Positions 1-58,907 of a stretch of DNA of 64,000 nucleotides are shown one piece after another. The notes beneath the pieces are model-generated. The model searched no databases, was not told the DNA's origin, and saw only the letters and a program-made list of their open reading frames with translations. Source of the stretch: Candidatus Poseidoniales archaeon. GTDB lineage: Archaea; Thermoplasmatota; Poseidoniia; Poseidoniales; Poseidoniaceae. The stretch covers positions 3,891 through 67,890 of the forward strand of contig QQSK01000009.1 of the NCBI GenBank assembly GCA_003602415.1. Direction: 5' to 3'. How positions within the stretch are numbered: the stretch's first letter is position 1; each line of letters starts with the position of its first letter. The position numbers were made by a program, and so were the translations under genes.

Positions 1-300
1 ATCTGTATTCCAAATGACTACAGTTCCCGGCTCCAAAGCAGCAAGATCTTCTTCCCAAGTTGCAGGATTTACCAAGACCTGAATATGTGTTCTATCTCCA
101 GGTGCTTGATAGCCTTTTTCAGATAAGCGAACGATGTACCAAGTGGGTAATCCTGAGATATTGGAAGGGAATAAATTCTTTCCACTAACCGGTATACCCA
201 TGTCAAATAATGTCTGCAAAAGAATGAGATTTGCAGACTGAGATCCTGTACCATTTGCTGTTGCGATATTGATTGTAAAGTCGTTTACAATTTTGTCCAT
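1..300 (-). CDS. korA: 2-oxoacid:ferredoxin oxidoreductase alpha subunit, N-terminal part (continues beyond the left edge of the window)
   Basis: Not in the ORF track. The minus-strand frame from ATG at 300 is open to base 1 and reads MDKIVNDFTINIATANGTGSQSANLILLQTLFDMGIPVSGKNLFPSNISGLPTWYIVR..., the typical N-terminus of KorA-type alpha subunits. Confidence 0.85.
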   Translation of the reverse strand, partial: MDKIVNDFTINIATANGTGSQSANLILLQTLFDMGIPVSGKNLFPSNISGLPTWYIVRLSEKGYQAPGDRTHIQVLVNPATWEEDLAALEPGTVVIWNTD

Positions 301-38658: not shown

Positions 38659-39807
38659 ATGGTCGCCTTCCAGTTGGATGAGATGCAAGAGATGTTGCGT
38701 GAATTAGCACATGAGTTTGCAATCGATGAAATCCGTCCAAATGCCGAGCATTGGGACCTCAATTCCGAATACCCGAAACAAGCAATCAATGCTGCACATG
38801 AAATGGGATTACTAAACCTACACATTTCCGAAGAATATGGAGGGCCTGGGCTCGGTTCAATGGAAGAAGTTCTTGTCAACGAAGAATTAGCATGGGGTGA
38901 CCCTGGATTTGCTACAGCGGCTTATGCTACAAGTTTGGCTTGTGCTCCACTGATTACAGGTGCAACACATGAACAGAAGGACAAGTATCTGCGAATGGTT
39001 GCTGAAGATGGTGCTCTAGCATCCTATGCGGTTACTGAGCCAGGCGCTGGCTCAGACGTTGCAGCTTGTAAGACCTTAGCGGTTAGAGATGGTGATGATT
39101 ATGTCATCAATGGTTCGAAAATGTGGATCACAGGTGCTGGTAAAGCGGATTGGTTCTTTGTTTTAGCTAAAACAGATCCTGATGCAGGATACAAAGGAAT
39201 GTCAGGATTCATCGTCGATGCCAATTCTCCTGGATTAACTCTAGGAAAGAAAGAGAATAACATGGGTCAAAGATGTTCAGACACTCGTTCAATTACCTTT
39301 GATGACATGAGAGTGCCCGCTGAGAATCTATGTGGAGGCTCAGAATCCGGAGGCTGGATGAATGCAATGAAGGCTTTCGACATGAGCCGGCCAAATATTG
39401 CAGCACACGCTACAGGTTTAGCAAGAGCTGCTTATGAGCATGCTTTGCAATATTCAGGTGAGAGGCAGACCTTTGGAAAACCCCTTCATCGTCATCAAGC
39501 AATCCAATTTATGCTTGCAGACATGAAAACAAAAATAGAAGCCTCAAGATTGTTAACTTGGAAATCAGCATCGGATTCAGATGCAGGAATTAGTAATACT
39601 GAGTCAGCGGCACATGCTAAGAGGTTCGCCTCAGATACTGCAATGGAAGTTACTACTGATGCAGTTCAAGTCTATGGCGGATACGGTTATTCTGAAGAAT
39701 ATCCTGTTGCTAGATTGATGAGGGGTGCTAAAGTTATGCAAATCTACGAAGGAAGCAGCCAAGTTCAAAGAATGATTATTGGGCGTGAAATCACCAAGGA
39801 CTTGTGA
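38659..39807 (+). CDS. Acyl-CoA dehydrogenase
   Basis: YAVTEPGAGSDV, INGSKMWITGA, MGQRCSDT, RQTFGK, QVYGGYGYSEEYPV and IYEGSSQVQR. Confidence 0.96.
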   Translation: MVAFQLDEMQEMLRELAHEFAIDEIRPNAEHWDLNSEYPKQAINAAHEMGLLNLHISEEYGGPGLGSMEEVLVNEELAWGDPGFATAAYATSLACAPLITGATHEQKDKYLRMVAEDGALASYAVTEPGAGSDVAACKTLAVRDGDDYVINGSKMWITGAGKADWFFVLAKTDPDAGYKGMSGFIVDANSPGLTLGKKENNMGQRCSDTRSITFDDMRVPAENLCGGSESGGWMNAMKAFDMSRPNIAAHATGLARAAYEHALQYSGERQTFGKPLHRHQAIQFMLADMKTKIEASRLLTWKSASDSDAGISNTESAAHAKRFASDTAMEVTTDAVQVYGGYGYSEEYPVARLMRGAKVMQIYEGSSQVQRMIIGREITKDL

Positions 39808-40355
39808 TTACAATGGCTAAATCCGTACCAGCCATTATTTTGGCTGCAGGGGCATCTTCAAGACTTGGCCAACCCAAATCATTGGTTCAATGGCAAGGAG
39901 AAACTTTGGTGGGACGTGCGGTTAGATTGTTGAAACAGAGCAATTGTTCTCCGATAGTAGTAGTCACTCGATCTGATTTACAAATCGATGTGATGTTATC
40001 TTGTCCAGATTCTACAATCGTTGTCAACCCTAATCCTGAACATGGTAGAACTGGTTCTTTACAAGTAGGATTAATTTCTCTAATCAGCGAATTAGGTCGC
40101 ACCCCAAGAAGAGTTTTGGTTTCTCCAGTAGACCGTTGTGGATGGACAGTTGAAACGGTTTCAAGACTTTTAGAATACAACGAAAACACCTCACCTATGC
40201 CTAGTGGTCATCCACTTTTATTGTGTGAAATAGAAAAAATTCTCTCCTTGCCTAAGGATGCCTCATTGAGAGATAGCATCGAAATAAACCGAATTCAAGC
40301 ACCCGGCGAACATATGAACATCGACACTCCCGCAGATTTGGAGGCATTGCAATGA
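39804..40355 (+). CDS. mocA: Molybdenum cofactor cytidylyltransferase-like NTP transferase
   Basis: ILAAGASSRLGQPK, NP, PVD, GHP and NIDTPADL. Overlaps both acyl-CoA dehydrogenase and xdhC. Confidence 0.8.
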   Translation: MITMAKSVPAIILAAGASSRLGQPKSLVQWQGETLVGRAVRLLKQSNCSPIVVVTRSDLQIDVMLSCPDSTIVVNPNPEHGRTGSLQVGLISLISELGRTPRRVLVSPVDRCGWTVETVSRLLEYNENTSPMPSGHPLLLCEIEKILSLPKDASLRDSIEINRIQAPGEHMNIDTPADLEALQ

Positions 40356-41155
40356 CTGCGCGCACTTTGCAATGGGCTTTACAACAATTGAGCCTCAATC
40401 GCAAAGTTGCGATCGCCAGCGTAGTTTCAACAGCGGGCTCAGTTCCTGGAAAAGAGGGTGCTAGGCTAGCATTGACAGATTTAGAAATCAATGGGACGGT
40501 AGGCGGAGCAGGCCTCGAAATGAAGGTAATTTCTCAACTGAGAGAAATGTTATCACAAGCGAACAAACCATGTGGAGAAATTGTGACCTATGGTTTGAAT
40601 AAAGGGGCCAAGGGCTATGAGGTAAGGCCTCTAGACAGTCTCTGTGGCGGCCGAGTAACCGTCGCATTAGAGGTTCTGATTCCTATGCCGCATATTCTTC
40701 TGATGGGTGGAGGTCACTGTGCAAAAGCGATAGCTGAGGCTTGTGGCCCTCTTGATTGGAAGTATTCGGTCCAAGATTCAAGAGCAGAATTTGCTGATTT
40801 GGAAGGTTCTGTTGAAACACATCATTCTTGTCCTAAGGATTTTCTAATGAATGAAGATAGTAGTTCACTATCACGCTTTAGCGATATTTTGCTTTTGGGT
40901 CATGATTGGAAGGAAGACGAAGAAAGACTTCTGGGTCTTTTGTTTTCAGGTTATGATGGTCGTCTAGGAGTAATTGGTTCAAAATCAAAATGGAATGCTT
41001 TCACCAAAGTTGCACTGGATGCAGGTATTTCTCAAGAGAAATTAGACACAGTAAATTGCCCAATAGGACTTGACATTGGTGCCGAGAGTCCTGAAGAGAT
41101 TGCTATCGCAGTTTTAGCAGAAATACTAGCGGCTCACAAGGGCGTTAATCCTTGA
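40352..41155 (+). CDS. xdhC: XdhC/CoxI-family molybdoenzyme maturation factor
   Basis: GSVPGKEGARL, GTVGGAGLE, CGGRV, GGGHCA and CPIGLDIGAESPEEIAIAVLAEI. Confidence 0.92.
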   Translation: MTARTLQWALQQLSLNRKVAIASVVSTAGSVPGKEGARLALTDLEINGTVGGAGLEMKVISQLREMLSQANKPCGEIVTYGLNKGAKGYEVRPLDSLCGGRVTVALEVLIPMPHILLMGGGHCAKAIAEACGPLDWKYSVQDSRAEFADLEGSVETHHSCPKDFLMNEDSSSLSRFSDILLLGHDWKEDEERLLGLLFSGYDGRLGVIGSKSKWNAFTKVALDAGISQEKLDTVNCPIGLDIGAESPEEIAIAVLAEILAAHKGVNP

Positions 41156-41717: not shown

Positions 41718-44700
41718 TCAAATCTCAACGAAATCAATCTTCAAGTTTCCATTTGGAGCAATAGAAACAACTGGCTTAAATCCATCGTGTGGAGTCGAGG
41801 CCAACGAATTCTGAATTGCTGCAGTAACACTAGGGTCTAGAAGTAAATCATAATCGAAATCACTTGTATCTAATACAGGTGCAGGGATTTCATTAACGTA
41901 TTTTTCTTCATCGATTTCATCTAAGTCAATGATTTCTTCTTCCTCATCTTCGATTTCATCTAGGTCAATGATTTCATCTTCCTCATCTTCGACTTCCTCG
42001 ACTTCTTCGATTTCTTCTTCATCTTCAAGGTCGGATTCATCCAAGACCGCTTCAGGAATATTTCTATTTCCTTGATCTAGGGCTTGGGTAATTGCGTCTT
42101 TAGCCTGAGAATATCCTTCATCGAAAACCGTTGAAATTTCTCCCATGCGGGATATGTATGCGAACCCGAATCCAAGTGCTACAACTCCTAAGAACATCCA
42201 TGTGACATTTGTATAGAGGTCGGTTTCAAATGTTAGAGACATCATGAATAATGAGAATATCGATCCCATAGAACCAACACCTCTTCTCCATGGAGTTTCG
42301 GTTTCATCACGGAATCCTTGAACTGCAATTCCAGATAGGAATGTAGCCCATATTGCCCATAGCATAGTATCTTGTTCAGCTTCTCCAATAGCCCATGAAA
42401 TACCGGATAAGAAGTAAGCAATTCCTAAGAGGCCGATTCTATCGATCCATCCATAATATTCAATTTCGTCTTGCCAATTGAATATTTTCCAGTTCCAAGC
42501 GATTTCAGTCTTAGATGCAATCAAGGTCATCAAGATTCCAGACAATATCAACACCGCACCTACTAGAACATCTTGTACAGTACCTACCTGGTCTAACCTT
42601 TCCAGTATATTCCACACTGCGAATGCATGCAGTAGAGGTAATGCTAAGATTGCATACTTCTGTCCATTGATGAAACTGTCATATGTCGCCCATATAGCAC
42701 CCACGAGAGTTCCAATTCCCTTGAACGCTGTCCATGAGAATGTTAGACAGAATATAGTCCAAATGCGCATTACTGTAGTCAACCTTTCACGGCCTTCGAT
42801 AGTTTCAAGGTCGAATGAAGAAACAGTTGATTTCTGATTCATTACTGCTTGATCTGCCCATTTGTAAATCCATCCCTTTTCACTGGCTTGATTCAGCATC
42901 AATGTGAAAATACCAGTTCCAAGTAAACTGTGAGTTAATTGGTCTATGCCATCGAAATGTGTGAAGTTTGAATCATTGCCGAAACCGATTAGGAATGAAA
43001 CTAGAATTAGTGGAGCACTCCAAGGAATGAATTCCACCTTTCCAGTCAATACAGAGTACATGGTCAGTAATATTGTGATTGTTAGCATTAACCAACTTGC
43101 TTCTGGTAATATGCCGAACAATCCCAATGTCAACCAAAATGCAGGAATTGTCATCGGCATTTCTTCTACACCTTCGTCAACACCATACTGCCTATCAAGG
43201 ATGCCTTTACCTAGAATGATTAGATTTGTGATTCCAATTATGATGAAGGAGAATCTGCTCAAATCAAGTAATGTGATTTCAGCAGGGTTGTAAGAGATTA
43301 TATCAAACATCGAGAGAATTTCAGCAACGACTGCTCCATCAGTTACGAAACGATCACCGCTTACATCTCCGTACAAAATAAATGAAATTGGAGCTATACA
43401 TAGAACTAGATTCAGTCTGTGTTTTAACGCTCTAGTGAACACCAATATGTACATTGAGAGGAACAGAATACCTCCGCTAGTGTCGAATAATCCAATGATT
43501 AGTAGACCGATTAATGTAACAACATCAGCAGCCTTGTTTAACGATTCATCATTGAGTCCTTTCTTGGCAAGAAGTATTGAAATTCCAACAGGTCCTGCTA
43601 GAAGGATCAAGTCAAACAAGATAGTCGTATTCAGAATAACGTCTGCATCTGCTCTTGCTTGATTCAAACTAAATGCCATTGGTGCAGCAACTGCAATCAA
43701 TGTGATTGTCGCAATCATTCTTCCAGTTGATGATGCTTCTTCTTCATCGATTACTTCTTTGATGATTATTCCGATAGGAATCACTAGTAACAATGTCCAA
43801 AGCAAATCATCGCCCAGACTTTGAACACCTACCGATGTTAAAGCAACAGTGAATAGAACCATTGGGCCAATTAGACTCATTCTTCCTAGAGGGCCCCAAG
43901 AATAATCCATGACATTGGTATTTTGATTCTGCGCTTTATCGGGAACTATCCACGCATTTTTCGTGGTATCGAATACTGGCATCATATTAGTCCTAGTACT
44001 TTCAGCCCAACTCATCATTACTCCAATATCTAATTCAATTGTTCTAAATTTCCTCATAGAAGCATAAACAATCAATCCAACTAATGCTAATGTTATGTTG
44101 AATCCTTGAAGTGTATCTGATATATTATCAGGAAGAGGAACTTCTAATCTATCGAATAGTGAAAGAATTACTGCAATGACCATTGAGCCAGCCGTGGCAG
44201 CTGAACCCTCGAATGCAGACTTACTGTCACCTTCTTTCTCAGCGTTCATCATCATCATGTATGCGGAAATAACAGCATACAAGAATAAAGTCCAAGGAAT
44301 AAATGGATCGTCACCAAATAGCACAGATTCAGATAATACCATCAATCCTAATGTTACGAAGTGCGCCCAATCAGAAAGATGACCCTTCTGTCTTCCAAGT
44401 TCACCACTCACTAATACTGCGATTAGAATTGTTGCTTCCAACCACCATGGCTCGAATCCCCCAGTGAAATGGGATTGTGCAAAGAATGAGAATCCCGTTG
44501 CAATCATAGTCATATTTGCAACCCAATTTCTTGTAACCTTAGATATTACAAGCAAGTATGGTAGCATAATTAGAGTGACCATCCAAGGAATCAATCCAGA
44601 GCTAGGAGTGATGATGAATAATGATGCAGCCAATCCTATTGGCATGTATGGAATTCTACGCTTCAATGTGGCTGGGAAATATGCAATCAAAACAGCCAAC

Positions 44701-45827
44701 CATAATGCAACTTGTACGGTTAGATAAGTTCCTAGTGGAGACGGCAAATCGAATTGTCTAATCGGTCCCAGGATTAATTCAAAATCGGCATCTCTTGCAA
44801 TTAGCATTGCTAAGATTACTTCACCTACAAGGAATGCTGAGGTCCATTGCATCAGATCTTGTCTCAATCTTCGATCTGCAGCTAGTAATCCCTGAACTGC
44901 AATAATGAATACAAGAAGTGAAATCGCTCCTCCAGCACCTCCTTCATTACTATATTCGTACAATAGTGGCAACAATCCAGAGGTTACGGCAACTACTGAG
45001 AAAATGATTCCACTATTTGCCCGTAGTGCTAACCACATCGAAAGAGATGCTAATGCAATCATCGTAATTCCTAATTCCCATGATACAATGTTTTCTGACC
45101 ACTCCATCCAAATGCTTGAACCAATCAGTGCAACAACAAGTGGAGTAAATGTCGCAACCGACCATCCAAAGGTAGTAACTCCTTTTAGTCGCATCAAATA
45201 CATTGTTTGAGCAAGTGCAAGAGTTAGGGTAGCTGCTAGTTGAATGTAAATTGCATTAGCAGTTGGAATCCAATCTATACTTGAAGGGTCTGTACCGGCG
45301 GGAATTAACCACTCAACATCATATTCGCCTGCCAGATGTCCAATTAGCCATCTTGCACCATAGTTAACGCCGACTGCAAGGAAGAAGAAACCTACTCCTA
45401 ACATATAGTCATGAACATTTTGTAGTTCATTACCACCTTTACGTCTTTGAAATTCAACTAGCATAATAGCAAGGAAACCAGACAGAAGTCCTCCGAAACC
45501 GAGTACAAGATATTCAGTCTGTCCAGTATCTTCTCCACCAAATGCGATCGACAGTAATCCTGCCCATATTGCAACCATTGCAATTCCAAATAATATCAAT
45601 TGAGCGAACTTTTGTAAAGACGAATTGACAACATTACTTTGTGCAACTCCAATTGAACCTAATTTTACATTAGGTGTTGGTTGAGTGTTGGCATATAGGG
45701 TGCCTGCCCTCGCAGTAAGCGTTTTTGTGTTAGACGGTCTTCTTGGCCGAGATGGTGGATTTGCCATTTCAATCGGTGGTAAATTAGGCCTAGTACTTTT
45801 GAATGTTGAGCCGGAACTCTGGCTCAA
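41718..45827 (-). CDS. Large polytopic membrane protein of unknown function with an acidic C-terminal tail
   Basis: 1369-aa ORF with dozens of hydrophobic segments and an EEEIIDLDEI repeat tail. The start is uncertain (TTG 45827 or ATG 45767). Confidence 0.8.
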   Translation of the reverse strand: MSQSSGSTFKSTRPNLPPIEMANPPSRPRRPSNTKTLTARAGTLYANTQPTPNVKLGSIGVAQSNVVNSSLQKFAQLILFGIAMVAIWAGLLSIAFGGEDTGQTEYLVLGFGGLLSGFLAIMLVEFQRRKGGNELQNVHDYMLGVGFFFLAVGVNYGARWLIGHLAGEYDVEWLIPAGTDPSSIDWIPTANAIYIQLAATLTLALAQTMYLMRLKGVTTFGWSVATFTPLVVALIGSSIWMEWSENIVSWELGITMIALASLSMWLALRANSGIIFSVVAVTSGLLPLLYEYSNEGGAGGAISLLVFIIAVQGLLAADRRLRQDLMQWTSAFLVGEVILAMLIARDADFELILGPIRQFDLPSPLGTYLTVQVALWLAVLIAYFPATLKRRIPYMPIGLAASLFIITPSSGLIPWMVTLIMLPYLLVISKVTRNWVANMTMIATGFSFFAQSHFTGGFEPWWLEATILIAVLVSGELGRQKGHLSDWAHFVTLGLMVLSESVLFGDDPFIPWTLFLYAVISAYMMMMNAEKEGDSKSAFEGSAATAGSMVIAVILSLFDRLEVPLPDNISDTLQGFNITLALVGLIVYASMRKFRTIELDIGVMMSWAESTRTNMMPVFDTTKNAWIVPDKAQNQNTNVMDYSWGPLGRMSLIGPMVLFTVALTSVGVQSLGDDLLWTLLLVIPIGIIIKEVIDEEEASSTGRMIATITLIAVAAPMAFSLNQARADADVILNTTILFDLILLAGPVGISILLAKKGLNDESLNKAADVVTLIGLLIIGLFDTSGGILFLSMYILVFTRALKHRLNLVLCIAPISFILYGDVSGDRFVTDGAVVAEILSMFDIISYNPAEITLLDLSRFSFIIIGITNLIILGKGILDRQYGVDEGVEEMPMTIPAFWLTLGLFGILPEASWLMLTITILLTMYSVLTGKVEFIPWSAPLILVSFLIGFGNDSNFTHFDGIDQLTHSLLGTGIFTLMLNQASEKGWIYKWADQAVMNQKSTVSSFDLETIEGRERLTTVMRIWTIFCLTFSWTAFKGIGTLVGAIWATYDSFINGQKYAILALPLLHAFAVWNILERLDQVGTVQDVLVGAVLILSGILMTLIASKTEIAWNWKIFNWQDEIEYYGWIDRIGLLGIAYFLSGISWAIGEAEQDTMLWAIWATFLSGIAVQGFRDETETPWRRGVGSMGSIFSLFMMSLTFETDLYTNVTWMFLGVVALGFGFAYISRMGEISTVFDEGYSQAKDAITQALDQGNRNIPEAVLDESDLEDEEEIEEVEEVEDEEDEIIDLDEIEDEEEEIIDLDEIDEEKYVNEIPAPVLDTSDFDYDLLLDPSVTAAIQNSLASTPHDGFKPVVSIAPNGNLKIDFVEI

Positions 45828-49333: not shown

Positions 49334-49936
49334 ATGGTCGGCGAAGAACATGTTTCTATGGTTCCTGCAGCCCCTTCCAAAATCTGGGCTGCTGATGTAA
49401 ACGGCCAACCAAAAGAGGTTTTGGTAAATTCTAATGCGATTTTGTTAGATGTCCTGAGAGACAAGGTAGGATGTTTGGGTGTAAAACGCGGCTGTGACAT
49501 GGGAACATGTGGATGTTGTACCGTAATGATAGATGGCGAACCTCGACTATCTTGTCTCACAATGGCCCAAGATGCAGAAGGCTGTGACATCACTACAGTT
49601 GAAGGATTAGCAGATGGTGCACATCTTGCTCCAATCCAGAAGTGTTTCGCAGACCATGGAGGCTCGCAGTGTGGCTTTTGCACTCCTGGGTTTTTGGTCG
49701 CTTCACAGGCACTTTTGAATGAAAACTCCAATCCTTCTAACCAAGAAATAGCATGTGCAATTGAAGGAAATCTTTGCAGATGTACAGGGTATCAACAAAT
49801 CATAGAATCCATTCAAGCGGCCGCTGCAATTCATCGTGGAGAAAGCGAACTGCCAGCTCCTGCCAGCGATGCTCATCCTGACCCTAACCCGAGTGGTCCT
49901 GATGAACCGACTATGCCTCCGGGCCATGCGAGGTGA
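49334..49936 (+). CDS. hcrC: 2x[2Fe-2S] small subunit of a xanthine-oxidase-family molybdoenzyme (HcrC/CoxS-like)
   Basis: GCDMGTCGCCTV..CL, QCGFCTPG and GNLCRCTGY. Confidence 0.85.
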   Translation: MVGEEHVSMVPAAPSKIWAADVNGQPKEVLVNSNAILLDVLRDKVGCLGVKRGCDMGTCGCCTVMIDGEPRLSCLTMAQDAEGCDITTVEGLADGAHLAPIQKCFADHGGSQCGFCTPGFLVASQALLNENSNPSNQEIACAIEGNLCRCTGYQQIIESIQAAAAIHRGESELPAPASDAHPDPNPSGPDEPTMPPGHAR

Positions 49937-49940
49937 TTTT

Positions 49941-52745
49941 TTGTCTGGCGGTTACAAACAGCAACCCGGTAGCGGAGGTAATTCTATCCGTAAAGATGGA
50001 AAGAGAGTTGCTGGTAAGCAGAAATTCGCTCCACCAGGTTCTGGTGGTTCAGACCCTGTAATGAAACCTCGAGATTTGGATTTCATTCCTGAGATGGTAG
50101 GTGGGAATGAGAAGCAACCTGCAGGTGCTCACATACACGACCGTGCTAGGACCGGCACCATTGTAGGAAAGCCGACAACTTTAGTCGATGCTAATGCGAA
50201 AGTTACTGGGCAGGCCTGGTATGGAGATGACGTACGGTTACCCAACGAGATTATTGGCAGAATTGTCCGCTCACCTCATCATTATGCTAAAGTGGTCAGC
50301 ATTGATACTTCGAAGGCCGAAAAACTCCCTGGAGTTTTAGCCATTGCAACCGGAGAAGACGCTCCGAACAGTTTTGGTGTTTTACCAGTTACAAAAGACG
50401 AACACGCAATGGCAGTAGAAAAAGTGAGACACGTAGGAGATTTGGTGGCTTGTGTTGCAGCGATTGATGAAGCTACAGCAAGAGAAGCAGCAGCGTTAAT
50501 CGATGTAGAGTATGAGGTGTTAGATTCTATTCACGACATGCGTAAGGGATTGGAAGATGTTGACGAACCCATTCACTGGAGAGGTAAGTATCACGTTGGT
50601 ACTACAAATGTTCAGAAAAGGGTTTTCCAGGAGTTCGGAGATCGCTCAATGATTGAGGACCCGAATGCCATGTATCATGGTAAATGGAAGTTCATGGGAG
50701 TAAATCACGGATTCACTGAACCACACGCAGTAGTGGCCCATTGGGATTCAAACGGTCGATTACAGTTGTACACTCCTCAGCAAGTTCCGCATTACGCTCA
50801 CAGAGCACTCGCAACAGTTCTGGACGTTCCAATGCATCAAGTCAATGTGATTCGAACATTTGTAGGAGGAGGTTTTGGTGGCAAGTCTGACCCATTCCCT
50901 CACGAAATGTGTGCTGCTATTTTGGCTAGAAAAGCAGGGCGACCAGTCAGAATAACCTTTGACAGAGAAGAGGTATTTTGGGTCAACCGTGGAAGGCACC
51001 CCAGTCATATTGAAGTTCAAATGTATGCAGATGAAGAAGCTAGAATCTCTGGCTTTGACATTGATGCTCTTATCGATGGAGGCGGATTCGCATCTTTTGG
51101 ACACGTCACTTCATATTACAACGGAGTTTTAGCCACCGCTCCATATGAATTGGGCTCATTCCATTACACAGGAGCAAGGGTTTGGACGAACAAACCAGCA
51201 AGTGGTGCGATGAGAGGTCATGGGGCAGTAAATACCCGATGCGCAGTCGAAGTTGGACTAGATGACATGGCTGAACAATTGCAAGTTGATCCAATCGATT
51301 TACGACTTGCTAACTTACTACCCCCTCATTCGAGAACAATTTCAGGATTCAGAATCACTTCAAATGGAATGCGTCAAGCATTACAGAAAGTCAGAGAAGG
51401 TAGTGATTGGGATAACAAATTCAGAAAATTACCCTTGGGTAAAGGAATTGGAATCGGTTGTGGCTTCTTCATTTCAGGCTCAGGATTGCCAATTCATTGG
51501 GACCCGAACAAATTCCCTCATGCAACCGTCCATCTCCAAATCGACATGGATGGAGGAGTAACAGTTCATACAGGTGCTGCTGACATTGGACAGGGTTCTA
51601 CTACAGCGGTAGCACAAGTTGTCGCCGAAGTTCTTGCTCTACCTATCGAAATGATTCATGTTCGAAGTCATGAATCAGATACTAGCCCTGTAGACCTTGG
51701 TTCATATTCTTCCAGAGTCACTTTCATGAATGCAAATGCTGCAATACGTGCAGCATTGGAAATCAAAGAGAAGTTGTTGAATGCTGCATGGGACACATTA
51801 GGTTATCATCCAGATACCCTGGTTCTCAACGACAGGCGAATCTACTACAAACACGACCCTGCAATTGGAATGTCGTATCTCGAGGCGCTTCACAAAGCGC
51901 AAGAAGACAAAGGTGCACTTATCTCATCAGGAGCATATCGTTCACCTCCAATGGGCGGTGTTCACAAAGGTGCAGCAGCTGGTTTAGCACCTGCATATTC
52001 CTTCTCTGCATATGTTGCCGAAGTAGAGGTTGATGTCGAAACTGGCATGATAAAATGTACCGATGTATGGGCTGCTCACGATTGTGGTAAAGCATTGAAC
52101 CCTCTTGCCGTTGAAGGGCAGATAATCGGTTCATGCCACATGGGATTGGGTCAAGTTTTGACTGAGCAAATGGTGTATGGAAGAACTGGGCATTTGCAAA
52201 ACCCCAATCTTTTGGAATATAAAATTCCAAGCGTGCATGAAATGCCAAACGTCACTCCAATTATCATAGAATCATGCGACCCTGAAGGGCCATTCGGTGC
52301 AAAAGAAGCTGGAGAAGGCCCGCTACTACCAATACTTCCAGCGGTAGTAAACGCTGTTTACGATGCGATTGGAATTAGGATTAACGATCTTCCTCTCACT
52401 CCGGACAAAGTTTGGGCAGCAATCGCAAAGAAAATGAAAGTTGATGGTATAGAAGACCCATCAAGTCTACCAGTTCCACGTTTGGATTTCTCAGAATTAC
52501 AATCAAAGTTAGCAAAACGTGCTGCTAATCATGAAATTAGAGACAAGAGAAGACAAACTACTGAAGATACTCATGCATATGTGAATGGAGTATTGTTTGG
52601 ATTTGACCCCAATGTTCCTCTTGAGGAACAAGTGGATGGATGGAAATCCGCAGATAAGCCAGAACCTGAACAATTGGCTGAATTAGGATTGGCCGGTAAG
52701 GCTTGGCTAAAAGACGAGCAACGTCACATGGGAGGTGAAAACTGA
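49941..52745 (+). CDS. hcrA: Molybdopterin-binding large subunit, 4-hydroxybenzoyl-CoA reductase alpha-like
   Basis: FGVLP, VNH..EP, QVP, GGGFG, AMRGHG, TGAADIGQG, GSYSSRVTF, GKALNPLAVEGQ and GPFGAKEAGEG. SD GAGGTGA (49930-36) precedes TTG 49941. Confidence 0.8.
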   Translation: MSGGYKQQPGSGGNSIRKDGKRVAGKQKFAPPGSGGSDPVMKPRDLDFIPEMVGGNEKQPAGAHIHDRARTGTIVGKPTTLVDANAKVTGQAWYGDDVRLPNEIIGRIVRSPHHYAKVVSIDTSKAEKLPGVLAIATGEDAPNSFGVLPVTKDEHAMAVEKVRHVGDLVACVAAIDEATAREAAALIDVEYEVLDSIHDMRKGLEDVDEPIHWRGKYHVGTTNVQKRVFQEFGDRSMIEDPNAMYHGKWKFMGVNHGFTEPHAVVAHWDSNGRLQLYTPQQVPHYAHRALATVLDVPMHQVNVIRTFVGGGFGGKSDPFPHEMCAAILARKAGRPVRITFDREEVFWVNRGRHPSHIEVQMYADEEARISGFDIDALIDGGGFASFGHVTSYYNGVLATAPYELGSFHYTGARVWTNKPASGAMRGHGAVNTRCAVEVGLDDMAEQLQVDPIDLRLANLLPPHSRTISGFRITSNGMRQALQKVREGSDWDNKFRKLPLGKGIGIGCGFFISGSGLPIHWDPNKFPHATVHLQIDMDGGVTVHTGAADIGQGSTTAVAQVVAEVLALPIEMIHVRSHESDTSPVDLGSYSSRVTFMNANAAIRAALEIKEKLLNAAWDTLGYHPDTLVLNDRRIYYKHDPAIGMSYLEALHKAQEDKGALISSGAYRSPPMGGVHKGAAAGLAPAYSFSAYVAEVEVDVETGMIKCTDVWAAHDCGKALNPLAVEGQIIGSCHMGLGQVLTEQMVYGRTGHLQNPNLLEYKIPSVHEMPNVTPIIIESCDPEGPFGAKEAGEGPLLPILPAVVNAVYDAIGIRINDLPLTPDKVWAAIAKKMKVDGIEDPSSLPVPRLDFSELQSKLAKRAANHEIRDKRRQTTEDTHAYVNGVLFGFDPNVPLEEQVDGWKSADKPEPEQLAELGLAGKAWLKDEQRHMGGEN

Positions 52746-53689
52746 TGCTAATGCCACCGTTTGAACTTCACAAACCTAAATCGGTTGAAGAAGCATGTAA
52801 TTTGGCTGCTGAACTTCTAGAAAGTGGTCAAGAATTTGACTGGATTGCAGGAGGAACCGATTTGATTCCAAATTACAAATGGCATATCAATACTAAACCT
52901 CACGTAATCTCATTAGCAGGAATAGATGGGGTTTCAGATATTTCAATGACTGAAATAGGTTGTATGGCGAGACTTCATGATATTGCTGAAGGCGGAAATG
53001 CACATCCATTAATCGCTGAGGCTGCTAGCAAAGTAGCATCTTCGCTGATTCGACGAAATGCTACATTGGGTGGTAATTTATGCTTGGACACTCGTTGTTT
53101 CTGGTTCAACCAAGCAGAAGAATGGAGGAGTAGTATCGATTGGTGTCACAAGTGTGATTGTGGTACAGGTGCTGATTGCAGAGTTATTCCAAATCAAAAT
53201 GAATTATGTGTGGCTACTTACCAAGGAGATATGGCTCCAAATCTGATGGTCCTTGATGCCACAGCACATTTGATTGGTCCAAATGGAGAAAGGTCAATGC
53301 CACTTCATGAGTTTTACCAATTGGATGGAATGACGAGAAATGTTCTGGAGCCTGGAGAATTTATGCTGAAGATTACATTCCCTGAGGATGTAGGAAATTG
53401 GGTCGGCTCCTATCGTAAGTTAAGGATTAGAGATTCATGGGATTTCCCTGAAGCAGGCGCTGCCGCAGCTTGGAAAAAAGGCGACAGGTCCACACTTAGA
53501 GTTGCTACCACAGCCCTTGAAAGCATACCTAGAAGACACGATGAAGAGGTTGCTAACTCCAATGGAGACGTTAAGACAATTTGTGATGCAATATATGATT
53601 CAACCAAGCCGGTAAACAATACTGCACTTCCACCTAGGTACCGCAGAAATATGATCAAGGTCTTGGTAAAGAGAGCATGCGAGGAATAA
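52745..53689 (+). CDS. hcrB: FAD-binding subunit with a Cys-rich [4Fe-4S]-type insertion (HcrB-like)
   Basis: IAGGTDL.PN and ATLGGNLCLDTRC.W.NQ..WR...WC..C.C....C........C.ATYQGD; RIRDSWDFP. Confidence 0.82.
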   Translation: MLMPPFELHKPKSVEEACNLAAELLESGQEFDWIAGGTDLIPNYKWHINTKPHVISLAGIDGVSDISMTEIGCMARLHDIAEGGNAHPLIAEAASKVASSLIRRNATLGGNLCLDTRCFWFNQAEEWRSSIDWCHKCDCGTGADCRVIPNQNELCVATYQGDMAPNLMVLDATAHLIGPNGERSMPLHEFYQLDGMTRNVLEPGEFMLKITFPEDVGNWVGSYRKLRIRDSWDFPEAGAAAAWKKGDRSTLRVATTALESIPRRHDEEVANSNGDVKTICDAIYDSTKPVNNTALPPRYRRNMIKVLVKRACEE

Positions 53690-53691
53690 TT

Positions 53692-54627
53692 GTGAAGAGA
53701 TTTTTAGTAATCATATTACTAATGGCGGCCTTTGCACCTCTGGCTGATGCCCAACTTCCCAGTGATCCAACCTCTGTTGAAATCGGATGGGATAGCGATG
53801 TTGAACCAATGGTTATGGAATTGAATTCGAATTATAATTTCGAATTGGTCATCAAATTCTGGGTGGAAAACTCTAGATTGATTCCAGTAGATATTGAGTT
53901 CGAAGTAGAAACTTTTGAATCATTCATTGTAGATGACCCTGGTAAAGTAACCGTGCCAGCTAATTCTAACGAGACATTTGAATTGGTATTAACTGGAAGC
54001 GGAATCGATAGCGATGGCTTATTGCTTCCATCTACGAATATATTCAAAGTTACACTCAAGGCAAATTTGATGCTGGGTGAACAAAGCACAGGGCAAGAAG
54101 AAATCGAAAAAGAAATCAAATTCTCTCAAGTGTATGGATTTGAAATTGATTTCCAGCCTCTGTTTAACGGAAAAGGACCTGAAGTCAAATCAGGTTCCGA
54201 TAAGAATATCGAAGTCGTGATAAAACTGGCAGGGAATACTAGAGACTCAATATTGAGGACAGACATGTCTTTCAGAGGGTGCCCTCAGATGGATTACAAG
54301 ACCTCTGATCCCATTTTTAGTGGAGGTATTGTTGAATCTCAAGCAACTGGAGAAGTGAACTTGATGGCTCCTTCCAGTCATCCAGATAAGGACTGTAAAT
54401 TCGTTGTTACGATCACTAGTGAAGGTAATGGAAATTCATATTCTGGTGAGTTGGAATTTACCGTTGATGCTCCAGAGGTGAAAGAAGAAGTAGAAGATGA
54501 GGAAGAATCAATCTCTGATTCATCTGGTTTGGAAGTCGAAGATAACTCTCTTCCAGCAATTTCTTCACTTTTGTGCATATTTACGATGATATTTTCTGCA
54601 GTTTTCAGTAGAAAAGGGCTTCAATAA
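53692..54627 (+). CDS. Secreted/surface protein with Ig-like domains and a CTERM-like C-terminal anchor
   Basis: Signal peptide MKRFLVIILLMAAFAPLADA from GTG 53692, acidic linker, then LPAISS-hydrophobic helix-RK. Confidence 0.75.
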   Translation: MKRFLVIILLMAAFAPLADAQLPSDPTSVEIGWDSDVEPMVMELNSNYNFELVIKFWVENSRLIPVDIEFEVETFESFIVDDPGKVTVPANSNETFELVLTGSGIDSDGLLLPSTNIFKVTLKANLMLGEQSTGQEEIEKEIKFSQVYGFEIDFQPLFNGKGPEVKSGSDKNIEVVIKLAGNTRDSILRTDMSFRGCPQMDYKTSDPIFSGGIVESQATGEVNLMAPSSHPDKDCKFVVTITSEGNGNSYSGELEFTVDAPEVKEEVEDEEESISDSSGLEVEDNSLPAISSLLCIFTMIFSAVFSRKGLQ

Positions 54628-54769
54628 AGCCTTCTTTCGGAAATGATACTGAATTATTGTTAATGATATTCCGATATTTTTTTTGAGCAAGCCACGATAA
54701 TCTATATGAGTGGAGTGAAGTTGCGAAAGGTGCTACGTTTGCCCGTAGCCGAATATCAGGTGACTAGAA

Positions 54770-56347
54770 ATGGCAGAAACAGAAACAACTGGTGTCAAGT
54801 TAGAAACTTGGCTACTCGTAGGTTTCCTAGTTGCAATGCTCCTTTCTACTACTGTAATCATAGCAACCTCTGCTAACAAGGATACAGTTTATTCTGCATA
54901 TGTTACCGATGAGGAGACCAATCTTCAATATCAACAAATCTCAACCATGAGAAGTTCTCTTGGTGACGATGGCAAGGATTACGTTGTAGCAAATACAATG
55001 TCAACCCCTATGCTAGTCAATGATTGGAGAGAGCCTCATCGAACAATGTTGATTATCGCTGCCCCTGAGAAGCCATTCGATAATGCAGAAGCTGATGCTA
55101 TACATGAGTTCGTCACCGAGAAAGGTGGAAAGGTAATCATTGCTGCAAACTCAACAAATGCTCAAACTGTTGCTGACAAATTCGATGTCAAATTCTTCGA
55201 TGCTCCAGTAGTAGATCCTAATCGCTTCTACGAGGTTGCTTCACCGACTGGTGAAGCAGAGCAACCGGATGCTCGAAAACTTTGGGCAGTTGCTGGCGTT
55301 AACAAGGTCTGGGATGACCAATTCGAGCGAAGGCCATACTGCAGCGATTCTGCATTGCAAGATAGTGAAAGATACGACGATTGTGCATTACCTATTCTAT
55401 TCCACAGGCCTACTGCTATTCAGGTATTAGATAATGAAGACACTTCAAGAAACGTGAAGGTTCTAGCACATGCATCTGGTTCTGCATTCATTGCTCGTGA
55501 GAACATGGATGCTAATGACCCAGATAATCCAATTCTTGGTGGTAACAATACTGGATTGATTGTTCGAATGGATTATCCAGGTATTGAGACAATTGACCAG
55601 GTAAAGGGTATTCGTGAAGGTGAAGTAGATGTCACGGGTAGTATTGTATTCATCTCAGACCATTCAGTATTTGCAAACCATCTTTGGGACATCGCTGATG
55701 CTGAGGTAACCGGAAAGCAACAGTGTGACACACCATACTATGGTGAGCGTTCATGCTGGGATTCCTTACTATCTTCTACCGATGGTAGTGGAACCGATTG
55801 GAACGGAAATGAAGATTATTTCGTAACTCTAATCAGAGATATGATGGAGCATGAAAATGACGAAATTTCAACAGTTATTACTAGCGAGAACAGAAATTTC
55901 TACATCGTTTTCGATGAATCTCGCCACGTAACCTCCGCAATGTCTTCTCCATTCACAGAAGCTATGGGTGCAATAGTTATGCTAACTAGTGATACCTTGC
56001 TAAAGTGGTTGATTATCCTCAATTTGATGGCATTGTTATCTATCGCTATCATGGTTGTCCCAGAAAAAGAAAACTGGCGCCACGTCTTCGATTTAACTCG
56101 ATTTAGAGAGCGACCAAACAAAGTCGATCCTAATCAATATCTTCAACGCGTACGAGAGTCAATGATGGCTAAAGTACGACAGTTTAACGACCTGACCCGT
56201 GATGAAATGGCCAGGAAAACACCAGGCGAGATCCAGTCCTTAGTGAAGGACCCTCGTCTCATCGAGTTGTTGTATTCACAACAGCGTTCATATTCCAACG
56301 AAGAATTAAGGCAATTATTGCAACAAATTCGACGTTGGGGAAAGTAA
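54770..56347 (+). CDS. DUF4350-like membrane-anchored protein
   Basis: N-terminal TM, MLIIAAPEKPFDNAEADAIHEFVTEKGGKVIIAA, ISDHSVFAN, FDESRH, a second TM, and position upstream of moxR. Confidence 0.75.
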   Translation: MAETETTGVKLETWLLVGFLVAMLLSTTVIIATSANKDTVYSAYVTDEETNLQYQQISTMRSSLGDDGKDYVVANTMSTPMLVNDWREPHRTMLIIAAPEKPFDNAEADAIHEFVTEKGGKVIIAANSTNAQTVADKFDVKFFDAPVVDPNRFYEVASPTGEAEQPDARKLWAVAGVNKVWDDQFERRPYCSDSALQDSERYDDCALPILFHRPTAIQVLDNEDTSRNVKVLAHASGSAFIARENMDANDPDNPILGGNNTGLIVRMDYPGIETIDQVKGIREGEVDVTGSIVFISDHSVFANHLWDIADAEVTGKQQCDTPYYGERSCWDSLLSSTDGSGTDWNGNEDYFVTLIRDMMEHENDEISTVITSENRNFYIVFDESRHVTSAMSSPFTEAMGAIVMLTSDTLLKWLIILNLMALLSIAIMVVPEKENWRHVFDLTRFRERPNKVDPNQYLQRVRESMMAKVRQFNDLTRDEMARKTPGEIQSLVKDPRLIELLYSQQRSYSNEELRQLLQQIRRWGK

Positions 56348-56367
56348 CCTAAGGAGGTAAAAAAGAC

Positions 56368-57546
56368 ATGCAGCCAGCACCACCACCACCCGCAGCCCCC
56401 CCTGCGCCGGCACCACCTGCACCAGCAGCACCGCCAGCACCGGCACCGGCCCCAGCAGCGCCACCAGCGCCTGCTCCAGCAGCACCACAGGCACCTATGC
56501 CAGTAGCTGCACCGGCCCCAGCCCCTGCAGCACCTGCACCAGCAGCACCAGCACCGGCACAGGCACAGCCTAGACACCAGAGTAGCCCAGAGGTCCGAGA
56601 ACGCCTACAAGCAGTCGGAGCTATATCGCAAGCGATTAGCGCCGAAGTTCAAAAGGTAATTATTGGAAAGAGCCACGTTATTGACAATGTACTGATCAAT
56701 ATTCTATCGAACGGAAACCTTCTGTTCGAAGATTATCCAGGACTTGCTAAGACATTGATGACCAACACCTTCGCAGATGCGTTGGGTTGTGATTTCAAGC
56801 GTGTTCAGTTCACTCCGGATTTGCTACCTGCAGATATTACCGGTACCAACATCTATGATGCTAAGAAGGGAGAATTCACCTTCAAGCCAGGTCCACTATT
56901 TTGTAACCTGCTACTAGCTGACGAGATTAACCGTGCTCCTCCTAAGACCCAAGCTGCTTTGCTTGAGGCTATGCAGGAGAAGCAGGTGACTATCGGAACA
57001 GTCACTCACAAACTACCAGCACCGTTCATTGTTATGGCAACTCAGAACCCTGTTGAGCAAGAAGGAACATACCCTCTGCCTGAAGCGCAGTTGGACCGTT
57101 TCATGTTCAAGATGAGCGTTGGTTATCCAGACCGTGCGGATGAAGATGAAATCCTAGCACGTCGTATCAACCGTGGAAAGGATGCAGTCGATGTCGACGT
57201 CATCACTGACCCACAACGTGTTATCGCTATGCAACAAGCTTGTGAAGACATCTATGTCGACCCTGCTTTGAGAATGTACATGGTAGAAATTGTTACCAGA
57301 ACCCGTGAAGACCCACGTGTATTAGTCGGTTCTTCTCCTCGTGGTTCTCAGGCTCTATTGAAGACTTCACGTGCAGCAGCAGCTCTACGTGGCCGTGACT
57401 TCGTAACACCTGATGACATCAAGACAGTATCGGAATTAGCACTTGCTCACAGAATTATTCTAAAGCCAGAACACCAAATCAAAGGTTTGGAATCTGGAGA
57501 AGTAATTCAAGCAATTTTGCGAGAAGTTCCAGTACCTACCGTCTGA
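56368..57546 (+). CDS. moxR: MoxR-family AAA+ ATPase with a Pro/Ala-rich N-terminal extension
   Basis: [72 protein letters not shown] and SPRGS. SD GGAGGT at 56353-58. Confidence 0.95.
56371..56571 (+). repeat. GC-rich low-complexity coding repeat (PAPAAP units)
   Basis: Runs of ccagcaccg/gcacca encoding about 66 Pro/Ala-rich residues. Confidence 0.9.
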
Positions 57547-57581
57547 TCGTTTCTTCAAGAAATTAGAATGAGGTGCGTAGC

Positions 57582-58895
57582 ATGTGGAGTCGTAAGAGTG
57601 CAATGTTAGGGTCGTTAGCGGTAGCTATGTACTTGCTAGGACTAACATTGAGGAATTCGCAACTAGTTACTATTGCTGTAGTGATTTTCGTCTTCCTAAC
57701 TTGGGCAGCGTTATTCGGCGGTCATGCTGATGTTGCTGCTAGCGGCCGACGTGCAGAGGAGTGGGCAGGAGAGGAAGGAGTATCTCTTTCCAACGTGTCT
57801 GCTATGCGTAAATTATCTAGTGCTCGAATTTTCGAAGACGGAGAAGTCTCTGTAACGCTCAGGATGCAGAATCATTCTGCCTTAGGAAAGATTCTGGAAG
57901 TTAAGGATAGAGTTCCTGAAGTAATGCGCATCAAAGATGGTGCGAACTACATACTAATGGAACTTGGACCTCGTCGTGAAACCTTCATCGAATACACTGT
58001 TGAATGCCCTCTTAGAGGATTTTACAGTCTTGGACCGGTCGCTGTTCGTGTCCAAGACCCATTCGGACTATTCCACAAGGAAAAGGAACTGCATGTCTAC
58101 AATGATTTCCTTGTGTTCCCGAAGATGGAAGATCTGAAAGATACATTCGTCAAGTCTCGTGTTCCGAAGATTTTCACTGGAGCAGTCAACATCCGTCAAC
58201 CAGGACCCGGTTCTGAATTCTACTCTCTTCGTGAGTACTTCGAAGGAGATTCATTCAGGGCAATTAACTGGTCAGCTTATGCTAGAAGTGGTAAGCTGAT
58301 GGTTAACGAGCGTGAAAGAGATGCGGTCAGCGATATTATTCTGATTGTTGATTCTCGGGCTGTCTCCGAAACAGGACCTGTTTCTAGAAACGCTTTGGTT
58401 TATTCAACCAGAGCGGCTGCAAGCCTTGCAAAGTATTTCCTTGGTCGCCGTGACTCTGTAGGATTAATCACATATGGTGATGAAGTGGTAAGTGTTGACC
58501 GAGATACTGGTAAAAAGCAACTGTATGTCATTCTGACTAAGTTGGCGGGCGCTATGGCTCGTGGCAACGTCCCTCTACAGGTTGTTGTCAACAGAATCTT
58601 GCCTCACATAAACAAAGGAAGTCCAATTATTGTACTTTCAAACCTTGAGGACGACCCTACTATTGTAACCGCTTTACGAGACTTCAGAGCTAGAGATTTC
58701 GATGTGACAGTATTGTCACCTTCTAGCCTTGAATTCGAATTTGATGCAAAGAGACTCGACAGAACTGGATATGAAGTTCTCAAGACCGAAAGGGACGTCT
58801 TAATCAGCGAGTTGCGTGGACTGGGTGTCAACATTATGGATTGGGAACCAGATATGCTACTATCAACCGCACTAGCAGGTGCAAGAGGATTCTAA
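57582..58895 (+). CDS. DUF58 (vWA-like) protein of a MoxR cluster
   Basis: CPLRGFYSLGP, VFPK, GSEFYSLREY..GD..INWSAYARSGKLMVNE and vWA-like IVDS. SD GAGGTG precedes ATG 57582. Confidence 0.9.
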   Translation: MWSRKSAMLGSLAVAMYLLGLTLRNSQLVTIAVVIFVFLTWAALFGGHADVAASGRRAEEWAGEEGVSLSNVSAMRKLSSARIFEDGEVSVTLRMQNHSALGKILEVKDRVPEVMRIKDGANYILMELGPRRETFIEYTVECPLRGFYSLGPVAVRVQDPFGLFHKEKELHVYNDFLVFPKMEDLKDTFVKSRVPKIFTGAVNIRQPGPGSEFYSLREYFEGDSFRAINWSAYARSGKLMVNERERDAVSDIILIVDSRAVSETGPVSRNALVYSTRAAASLAKYFLGRRDSVGLITYGDEVVSVDRDTGKKQLYVILTKLAGAMARGNVPLQVVVNRILPHINKGSPIIVLSNLEDDPTIVTALRDFRARDFDVTVLSPSSLEFEFDAKRLDRTGYEVLKTERDVLISELRGLGVNIMDWEPDMLLSTALAGARGF

Positions 58896-58907
58896 GGAGG
58901 TTAAATT

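Follow-up and report, generated by a model that had tools for sequence, protein, structure and literature searches.

Positions 49334–53689 of a 64,000-nt stretch of contig QQSK01000009.1 (the window), from assembly GCA_003602415.1 of Candidatus Poseidoniales (Marine Group II, MGII; family Poseidoniaceae), carry three overlapping open reading frames (ORFs) in the same orientation. As judged from their sequences, the three genes encode a molybdenum/flavin adenine dinucleotide (FAD)/iron–sulphur enzyme of the 4-hydroxybenzoyl-coenzyme A (CoA) reductase (Hcr) type, with a complete chain for the inverted electron flow of Hcr. The sequence-only reading of this DNA that preceded our analysis had reported the gene order small–large–FAD subunit, as in Thauera hcrCAB, and this order is present. 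It is not peculiar to Hcr, being found throughout the clade described below. The large subunit is the sole large subunit belonging to the xanthine oxidase (XO) family in the genome, a 1.89-Mb assembly (G000). Because this assembly is only 89% complete, gene absences reported here are probable, not certain. Coordinates are listed in Table 1.

The small- and large-subunit genes overlap by 11 nt in different frames, the large- and FAD-subunit genes by one base. The large-subunit ORF opens further upstream, at GTG 49836; its likely start is ATG 49926, because 120 MGII homologues (925–956 residues) begin at a conserved GGY+QQPG. In the small subunit, cysteines at positions 47, 54, 59, 61, 62, 74, 113, 116, 148 and 150 fall in the two usual [2Fe–2S] motif regions, and a Pro-rich tail of roughly 35 residues forms the C-terminus. 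The best explanation of the three sequences is a cofactor set that would comprise molybdenum–pyranopterin cytosine dinucleotide, two [2Fe–2S] clusters, FAD and an extra [4Fe–4S] cluster on the FAD subunit. The enzyme is probably heterotrimeric and cytoplasmic, assembled as a dimer of trimers. A scan for sigma-70 promoters and terminators, which is unsuited to archaea, yielded only chance-level matches.

Table 1. Features of the Hcr-like locus, its surroundings and the related clusters discussed in the text.
Feature	Position	Strand	Remarks
2-Oxoacid:ferredoxin oxidoreductase, N-terminus (KorA)	1..300	-	Open-ended ORF at window edge
Acyl-CoA dehydrogenase	38659..39807	+	Acyl-CoA_dh domains; co-oriented with MocA, XdhC
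MocA-like cytidylyltransferase	39804..40355	+	NTP_transf_3; makes cytosine dinucleotide form of Mo cofactor
XdhC-family Mo-cofactor insertion chaperone	40352..41155	+	XdhC_CoxI and XdhC_C domains
Small subunit (HcrC-like)	49334..49936	+	200 residues; Fer2/Fer2_2 domains
Large Mo-cofactor subunit (HcrA-like)	49926..52745	+	939 residues; Ald_Xan_dh_C, MoCoBD_1 and MoCoBD_2
N-terminal Gly/Pro/Lys-rich arm	49926..50153	+	Residues 1–76 of large subunit; absent from Thauera HcrA
Active-site loop GAMRGHG	51204..51224	+	Residues 427–433 of large subunit
C-terminal extension, about 100 residues	52425..52742	+	Residues 834–939 of large subunit; MGII-conserved
FAD subunit (HcrB-like)	52745..53689	+	314 residues; FAD_binding_5; [4Fe–4S]-type insertion
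Cys-rich insertion CLDTRC...WC.KCDC....DC.........LC	53081..53209	+	Residues 113–155 of FAD subunit
316-residue protein	53677..54627	+	No known domain; overlaps FAD gene stop by 13 nt
BoxB-type diiron protein	G000:C5:108903-110066 (L007:8903-10066)	-	387 residues; outside window
Acidobacterial Hcr-type/short-BoxB clusters	L063, L067, L073, L074, L087		Uncharacterised

For each subunit the best NCBIfam model is an Hcr model: TIGR03194 for the large subunit (789.6 bits; next, XdhA, 528.8), TIGR03195 for the FAD subunit (227.9 bits; next model, 94) and TIGR03193 (Hcr gamma) for the small subunit (181.7 bits; next model, 166.7). The cut-offs of these models, which are set at equivalog level, are 994.55, 404.55 and 257.8 bits respectively. 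In a PDB search the Thauera structure 1RM6 was the best match, with 598 bits for chain A and the large subunit (next chain, 253) and 177 bits for chain B and the FAD subunit (85 for PaoB). The AlphaFold2 model of the large subunit (predicted local distance difference test, pLDDT, 81.7; predicted template modelling score, pTM, 0.87) was placed by Foldseek on 1RM6 with a template modelling (TM) score of 0.96 and a root-mean-square deviation of 1.8 Å; the next structure, a quinoline oxidoreductase, gave 0.86. The AMRGHG active-site loop pointed out in the sequence-only reading is present, in the form GAMRGHG, while the loop sequence varies in the remaining XO-family rows of our alignment. The Gln and Glu of the Hcr molybdenum site are also retained.

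The enzyme is thus like Thauera aromatica HcrCAB (1RM6/1SB3; HbaBCD in Rhodopseudomonas palustris) in gene order, domains, the four insertion cysteines treated below, active-site loop, molybdenum-site residues, fold and major clade. It differs in having an additional N-terminal arm, predicted to be disordered, a C-terminal module and two further cysteines in a CDC insert. The hosts differ as well: MGII is an aerobic archaeon of the plankton that has neither a 4-hydroxybenzoate-CoA ligase nor a benzoyl-CoA reductase.

A xanthine dehydrogenase serving purine catabolism has been suggested for MGIIb ('xdhC and yagS', PMC9723583), where putative xdh genes were tied to high transcription of pbuG, encoding a xanthine/uracil permease (Damashek et al., 2021; PMC9723583). 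E. coli-type XdhA models are indeed the second-best NCBIfam matches of the large subunit. However, at 529 bits they fall short of their own cut-offs (780 and 916) and stay 260 bits under the Hcr model. The residue following GGGFGGK is Ser in MGII and Thr in Hcr, whereas in xanthine dehydrogenases we take it to be a substrate-binding Glu (bovine Glu802, R. capsulatus Glu232). The MGII protein therefore differs from xanthine dehydrogenases on both counts, model score and active-site residue, and it lies inside the Hcr-like clade of our trees. It is, moreover, the only XO-family enzyme of the genome. We regard this function as very improbable and the published xanthine dehydrogenase label as poorly supported. 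Form I CO dehydrogenase does not fit either, since the loop reads SGAMRGHGAV and not AYRCSFR with its Cu-binding Cys; the CoxL models gave 269–322 bits compared with cut-offs of 950–991.

Relatives were collected by scoring the large subunit against 1.84 billion representative proteins, and 80 named genomic loci were retrieved. Large-subunit trees were calculated with FastTree (220 sequences) and, by maximum likelihood, with IQ-TREE (54 sequences); the characterised anchor was Thauera HcrA alone, Ucdh (see below) having been left out. IQ-TREE places the MGII large subunit inside an Hcr-like clade with 100/100 support, and FastTree returned the same topology. Two subclades make it up. Clade B contains sequences from Acidobacteriota, Gemmatimonadota, Chloroflexota, Planctomycetota, Myxococcota and others; clade A (92/86) unites two branches, the first holding Thauera HcrA along with one representative 61% identical to it and seven Acidobacteriota, the second supported at 96/82. 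In the latter, MGII (100/100) is sister to other Thermoplasmata, followed further out by a marine Rickettsiales bin and a Planctomycetes bin, and then by Bacteroidota, with fused small and large subunits, and Oligoflexia. The GAMRGHG loop marks clade A (Thauera, the acidobacterial clade, and MGII with its sister clade), while clade B has GPKRGHG. The phylogenetic check proposed in the sequence-only reading thus finds the protein within, not outside, the Hcr clade, and together with the Thauera branch at 92/86. MGII forms a separate subclade at about 2 substitutions per site from HcrA, in a tree with one characterised sequence.

In the Cys-rich insertion of the FAD subunit, Cys118, Cys134, Cys145 and Cys155 align by count with Cys 122, 138, 146 and 155 of Thauera HcrB, which we take to be the [4Fe–4S] ligands. 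Cys137 and Cys139 are additional and lie within a three-residue insert (CDCGTGA) that is confined to MGII; both are kept in 12 of 14 MGII FAD subunits, the other two having ADC. Among the approximately 70 FAD subunits of the Hcr-like clade that were compared, nearly all conserve the set of four. The Cys-rich region of E. coli PaoB also aligns with the MGII insertion, and PaoB binds a [4Fe–4S] cluster, in an oxidative enzyme. The insertion and its two extra cysteines are therefore as first described, but the insertion is not specific for Hcr, as PaoB aligns and the quartet is clade-wide.

The alignment with PaoB, the second-best PDB match of the FAD subunit, also raises the possibility of an aldehyde oxidoreductase of broad specificity, acting in detoxification like PaoABC or Mop, and NCBI names some of the homologues aldehyde oxidase. 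E. coli PaoABC (5G5G) is likewise a heterotrimer whose FAD subunit has this aligned region. It differs in being oxidative and periplasmic, presumably by means of an export signal, and resembles the MGII enzyme only weakly: the PaoC model gives 301 bits (cut-off 1180) where HcrA gives 790, and PaoB gives 85. No twin-arginine motif was seen by eye in the N-terminus of the small subunit, and the tree puts MGII far from the Pao and Mop types. We consider this function quite improbable.

Two extensions distinguish the large subunit from HcrA. The length of about 100 residues first given for the C-terminal one holds, while the N-terminal one, put at about 55 residues, is longer (about 68–76), as residue 9 of Thauera HcrA aligns with residue 77 of the 939-residue protein. 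In the N-terminal arm the motifs GY+QQPG, PGSGG and IPE..GG..QP are kept across MGIIa and MGIIb. Since the AlphaFold2 pLDDT is below 50 over residues 1–68, this arm is predicted to be disordered. The C-terminal extension has no Pfam domain in a Pfam search; its motifs PR..LQ, H..RD..R, Y.NG.LFG.DP and AG.AW are conserved between MGIIa and MGIIb. It is predicted to be a folded module, modelled as a helix (858–878) with short further elements and with block-mean pLDDT values of about 66–95 over residues 841–930. In the Bacteroidota loci L030, L031 and L033–L035, the small and large subunits are fused into proteins of 923–945 residues. The Pro-rich small-subunit tail and Gly-rich large-subunit arm of the window (49830–50153) resemble the two halves of a fusion linker.

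For the gene context in other lineages, 1030 neighbouring genes were clustered and the recurrent ones annotated. The acidobacterial loci on the Thauera side begin with a TetR regulator, an enoyl-CoA hydratase (ECH), optionally an aldehyde dehydrogenase (ALDH), a 391-residue BoxB-like diiron protein and CoA-transferase A. They continue with a second ECH, CoA-transferase B or a rhodanese, the small, large and FAD subunits, and an Amidohydro_2 protein. Large subunits from these clusters are about 42–45% identical to that of MGII (tblastn) and stand on the sister branch with Thauera HcrA; their short BoxB is 46–51% identical, over the full length, to a 387-residue protein of MGII. They differ from MGII in forming one regulated operon with CoA-transferase, ALDH and Amidohydro_2, whereas MGII has its parts scattered and lacks the transferase and Amidohydro_2. 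The clade B loci L050, L052, L058 and L082 contain a full-length BoxB (472–474 residues), and most of them also a 559-residue BoxC-like ECH and AMP-forming or PaaK-type ligases. In Oligoflexia and Chitinophaga we found a FadB-like protein of 670–700 residues, thiolases and a short-chain dehydrogenase/reductase (SDR), accompanied in L032 by a ligase and in L034 by an ECH. Further Bacteroidota loci encode MocA, XdhC and an SDR together with the fused large subunit, the FAD subunit and a hemerythrin.

All informative contexts in the Hcr-like clade concern CoA thioesters, and many loci pair this 'anaerobic' reductase type with O2-dependent Box-type genes. The surroundings in the nearest relatives, namely the Rickettsiales (L026), Planctomycetes (L028) and Thermoplasmata (L029) loci, were considered as a clue and proved uninformative. 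The hemerythrin-domain protein of Bacteroidota is encoded directly downstream of the FAD subunit in two loci (L030:13367-13894, L031:14651-15184) and upstream, by the SDR, in a third (L035:1699-2217); it may be an O2 sensor or an O2 buffer for an oxygen-sensitive enzyme. A single-domain rhodanese directly 5' of the small subunit in acidobacterial operons (L063:8926-9267, L073:7567-7890) could be the sulphur donor for the Mo=S ligand.

The 387-residue MGII protein scored 234.7 bits with the BoxB model TIGR03225 (cut-off 499), compared with 41 bits for PaaA, and matched Azoarcus BoxB (3PER) at E = 3.6e-56. It retains the blocks QGDTE.ASVEQQ, EE.RH, DRDGKFQL and EE..HL, in which the iron-binding residues are presumably located. 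Compared with the Box pathway BoxABCD of Azoarcus/Aromatoleum evansii (3PER/3PF7), MGII likewise has a BoxB-type protein with a conserved catalytic core. It is shorter than the BoxB proteins of these bacteria (about 473–481 residues), and BoxA, BoxC and a recognisable BoxD equivalog are missing. Its gene neighbours are an HTH_10 regulator, a 177-residue domainless protein, an EamA transporter and a 3-hydroxyacyl-CoA dehydrogenase. MoaC and MoaE are encoded 1.7 kb away, and beyond them, at 4 kb, lies an ECH that is 61–63% identical to the ECH found 5' of BoxB in the acidobacterial operons. A wider aryl-CoA island on this contig (C5) was considered and rejected: the ECH, ALDH and FNR-like matches at 88–126 kb are interleaved with genes for a secretion ATPase, Cdc6, biotin carboxylase and other housekeeping functions.

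The distribution of both genes was surveyed in 201 Thermoplasmatota genomes, 36 of them from Poseidoniales. Every one of the 36 Poseidoniales encodes the Hcr-like enzyme, and 35 of them the short BoxB. Outside this order, nine genomes have both genes, seven the enzyme only, 12 BoxB only and 137 neither (Fisher p = 1e-5, kinship ignored).

Our preferred reading, which we hold tentatively and at somewhat less than an even chance, is that the enzyme, linked to ferredoxin, reductively dehydroxylates 4-hydroxybenzoyl-CoA or a closely related para-hydroxy-aryl-CoA, and that the product passes to the BoxB-type oxygenase. The enzyme type, its cofactor ligands, its place in the Hcr-like clade, its conservation across the order and the existence of the BoxB-type gene are observed; which way the reaction runs, on what substrate, with which electron donor and whether it connects to BoxB, we infer. 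Reduced ferredoxin could be supplied by the archaeon's 2-oxoacid:ferredoxin oxidoreductase. The KorA noticed earlier at the window edge was confirmed as the N-terminus of this 616-residue protein, which is the sole POR_N match in the genome (G000:C22:3066-3548, minus strand) and a possible source of reduced ferredoxin. Electrons would then travel via the [4Fe–4S] cluster, FAD and the [2Fe–2S] clusters to molybdenum, as in Thauera Hcr, where the para-hydroxyl group carried by 4-hydroxybenzoyl-CoA or the related thioester would be removed. The aryl-CoA product would be attacked by the short BoxB-type diiron oxygenase, making this an O2-using hybrid and not a benzoyl-CoA reductase route. The hydroxy-aryl-CoA could arise from phenylpropanoid-type acids by general beta-oxidation, so that no dedicated ligase would be needed; a FadB-like protein, thiolases, acyl-CoA dehydrogenases (ACADs) and one AMP-forming ligase are present in the genome.

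As soil bacteria encode BoxB and an Hcr-type enzyme in one operon, such a mixed route for phenolic acids is plausible, though unproven. The sequence-only reading had considered either a cryptic aromatic metabolism in low-O2 particle niches or a new reaction with another substrate. With a BoxB-type oxygenase in the genome whose homologue is operon-linked to an Hcr-type enzyme in Acidobacteria, an O2-using aryl-CoA metabolism is favoured over a strictly low-O2 niche.

A number of observations weigh against this dehydroxylase reading, the missing pathway genes among them. No aromatic-acid CoA ligase was found in the MGII genome (best match 52 bits), nor a CoA-transferase, a PaaK-type ligase or Amidohydro_2. 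The genome also lacks benzoyl-CoA reductases of class I and class II (HGD-D/BcrBC and AFOR/BamB), so that the absence of reductase and ligase first noted for the window extends to the whole assembly. Without an aromatic CoA ligase or transferase and without BcrBC-type or BamB-type subunits, the classical anaerobic pathway is rejected as probably absent. A complete Box pathway is rejected as well: BoxC was not found in this genome (best 82.8 bits, cut-off 712), and neither was BoxA (best 74.8 bits, cut-off 459), whose match covers only the FNR domain of a CysJ-type protein of 424 residues. The proposed genome-wide search for hbaA, bcr, bad and box genes thus turned up the short BoxB-type gene, but not the ligase, the reductases, BoxA or BoxC.

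Other points concern the link to BoxB. The two genes are never adjacent in archaea, each occurs alone in some Thermoplasmatota, and seven of the nine co-occurrences outside Poseidoniales come from one family (f9); with one family dominating and the genes never adjacent, the association is suggestive only. No box genes were seen in the inspected contexts of MGII's immediate sister loci. The ECH near BoxB counts for little despite its 61–63% identity, because its nearest solved relatives are generic crotonases, and we downgraded it as a pathway marker. As to the enzyme itself, all three subunits score under the Hcr equivalog cut-offs, and BLASTP identity to Thauera HcrA is only 43%. Thauera Hcr is oxygen-sensitive, while MGII live in oxic water. 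Finally, as PaoB holds its cluster in an oxidative enzyme, the [4Fe–4S] cluster does not fix the direction of the reaction.

The last point leads to an enzyme working in the opposite sense, an oxidative hydroxylase of an aryl- or heteroaryl-CoA thioester like 2-furoyl-CoA dehydrogenase, with electrons running from molybdenum through FAD and the [4Fe–4S] cluster to ferredoxin or another acceptor; an architecture like that of Hcr would then serve the direction customary in the XO family. The organism is aerobic, PaoABC illustrates that a FAD subunit with an aligned Cys-rich region and a [4Fe–4S] cluster can serve oxidation, and the sub-cut-off scores also speak for it. The sister-clade contexts (SDR, thiolase, ECH, ACAD, ligase) would fit any catabolism of CoA esters, and most XO-family enzymes are oxidative (PMC12771579). 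On the other hand, the one enzyme of the 100/100 clade that has been characterised is a reductase, and the GAMRGHG loop and the entire electron-transfer chain match Hcr. No furoyl-CoA-type pathway genes were identified, although no search was aimed at them. We judge an oxidative enzyme unlikely, if less so than the other alternatives. Our literature search returned no paper tying furoyl-CoA dehydrogenase to Hcr.

The lack of a dedicated aromatic CoA-activating enzyme in the MGII genome would be readily accommodated if the substrate were a phenol not bound to CoA, for example one from algal or humic material whose hydroxyl stands para to an ester or a carbonyl. A precedent in the XO family is provided by Ucdh of Enterocloster bolteae, a reductive phenol dehydroxylase that likewise has three subunits and needs XdhC and the molybdopterin cytosine dinucleotide cofactor (PMC12771579). 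Ucdh differs in its non-CoA substrate and strictly anaerobic host, and is 32.7% identical to Hcr (PMC12771579), whereas the MGII protein is much closer to HcrA (43%, same clade). As the informative contexts within the clade all involve CoA esters, we regard a Hcr/Ucdh-kind enzyme for free phenols as improbable.

The wider region is conserved in synteny throughout the order: ACAD, MocA, XdhC, small, large and FAD subunits, the 316-residue protein, DUF4350, MoxR and DUF58. In loci of MGIIb and Bacteroidota, MocA stands directly 5' of the hcr-like genes; for XdhC, synteny with the enzyme extends over MGII, Thermoplasmata, Bacteroidota and Oligoflexia. The ACAD gene belongs to the same cluster in four MGIIb loci and adjoins the enzyme in Bacteroidota L035; a functional link is possible. 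MGIIb loci (L016–L023, e.g. L019:8687-9337) have XdhC, then an S8-like protein and then, directly 5' of the small subunit, an HTH_10 regulator of the bacterio-opsin-activator type. Comparison with the HTH_10 protein beside the BoxB-like gene showed that this regulator is not its homologue. The MGIIa window has instead, at this place, a 1369-residue protein, an S8 protease and an acyltransferase. The 1369-residue ORF (41718–45827, minus strand), which has no Pfam match, lies by a 646-residue subtilase and is conserved in several MGII loci (cluster 26). Further upstream (34203–36833, plus strand) we noted an 876-residue fusion of 2-oxoacid dehydrogenase E1 alpha and beta (E1_dh, Transket_pyr and Transketolase_C).

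The 316-residue protein follows the FAD subunit in 14 of 15 MGII loci, the remaining one (L024) ending inside the large-subunit gene, and is about 25% identical between MGIIa and MGIIb. Its N-terminal and C-terminal segments are both hydrophobic, the former resembling a signal peptide by eye. It opens a co-oriented block (53677–59822) in which this apparently secreted or anchored protein is followed by a DUF4350-like protein, a MoxR AAA+ ATPase, a DUF58 protein and a 304-residue domainless protein. Most MGII loci keep this block in synteny, and no genes of the region are better conserved than MoxR (86%) and DUF58 (75%). In CO dehydrogenase the molybdenum site is matured by MoxR/vWA pairs (CoxD/CoxE), and by analogy a role of the MoxR/DUF58 block in maturation of the Hcr-like enzyme is conceivable.

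Poseidoniales are uncultured, count as some of the most abundant archaea in oxic surface waters of the ocean and are thought to live on peptides and lipids. To our knowledge, reductive dehydroxylation of para-hydroxy-aryl-CoA esters has so far been known only from anaerobes. A full molybdenum-cofactor pathway is a core trait of MGII, for which no client enzyme was named (Rinke et al., 2019; PMC6461757). MGIIa and MGIIb large subunits share 70% identity, compared with 38–54% for neighbouring shikimate-pathway genes. As the sole XO-family enzyme, present in all Poseidoniales surveyed and more conserved than the biosynthetic genes around it, it is probably a main reason why the cofactor pathway has been kept. 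It is not the only molybdoenzyme of the genome, a claim we had to reject: a 777-residue ORF with a PF00384 molybdopterin-oxidoreductase domain is encoded at G000:C16:82064-84394 (plus strand). This second candidate carries the motif TGFDCPGCAWPDP, and we take it to be a YdeP-type bis-molybdopterin guanine dinucleotide enzyme.

We regard the enzyme as a known type in a form particular to this lineage, in a host where it was not expected and newly linked at genome level to a BoxB-type oxygenase, and not as a new kind of system; a literature search gave no paper tying MGII or Poseidoniales to Hcr. A bolder proposal, which is speculative and on balance unlikely, is that Poseidoniales run an oxygen-tolerant, ferredoxin-driven dehydroxylation of para-hydroxy-aryl-CoA followed by a BoxA-independent short BoxB epoxidase. 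Phenolic acids of algal and terrestrial origin would be channelled through this hybrid of reductive and oxygenolytic steps, which soil Acidobacteria would share; the C-terminal module and the extra Cys pair would be adaptations to oxygen or to a new redox partner. If phenolic acyl-CoA esters are indeed dehydroxylated in oxic water, a reaction regarded as 'anaerobic' would belong to the marine carbon cycle, and MGII would gain a role in the turnover of phenolic dissolved organic matter. The published inference of xanthine catabolism in MGIIb would then need revision, and a possibly oxygen-tolerant enzyme of the Hcr type would be on offer for mechanistic study.

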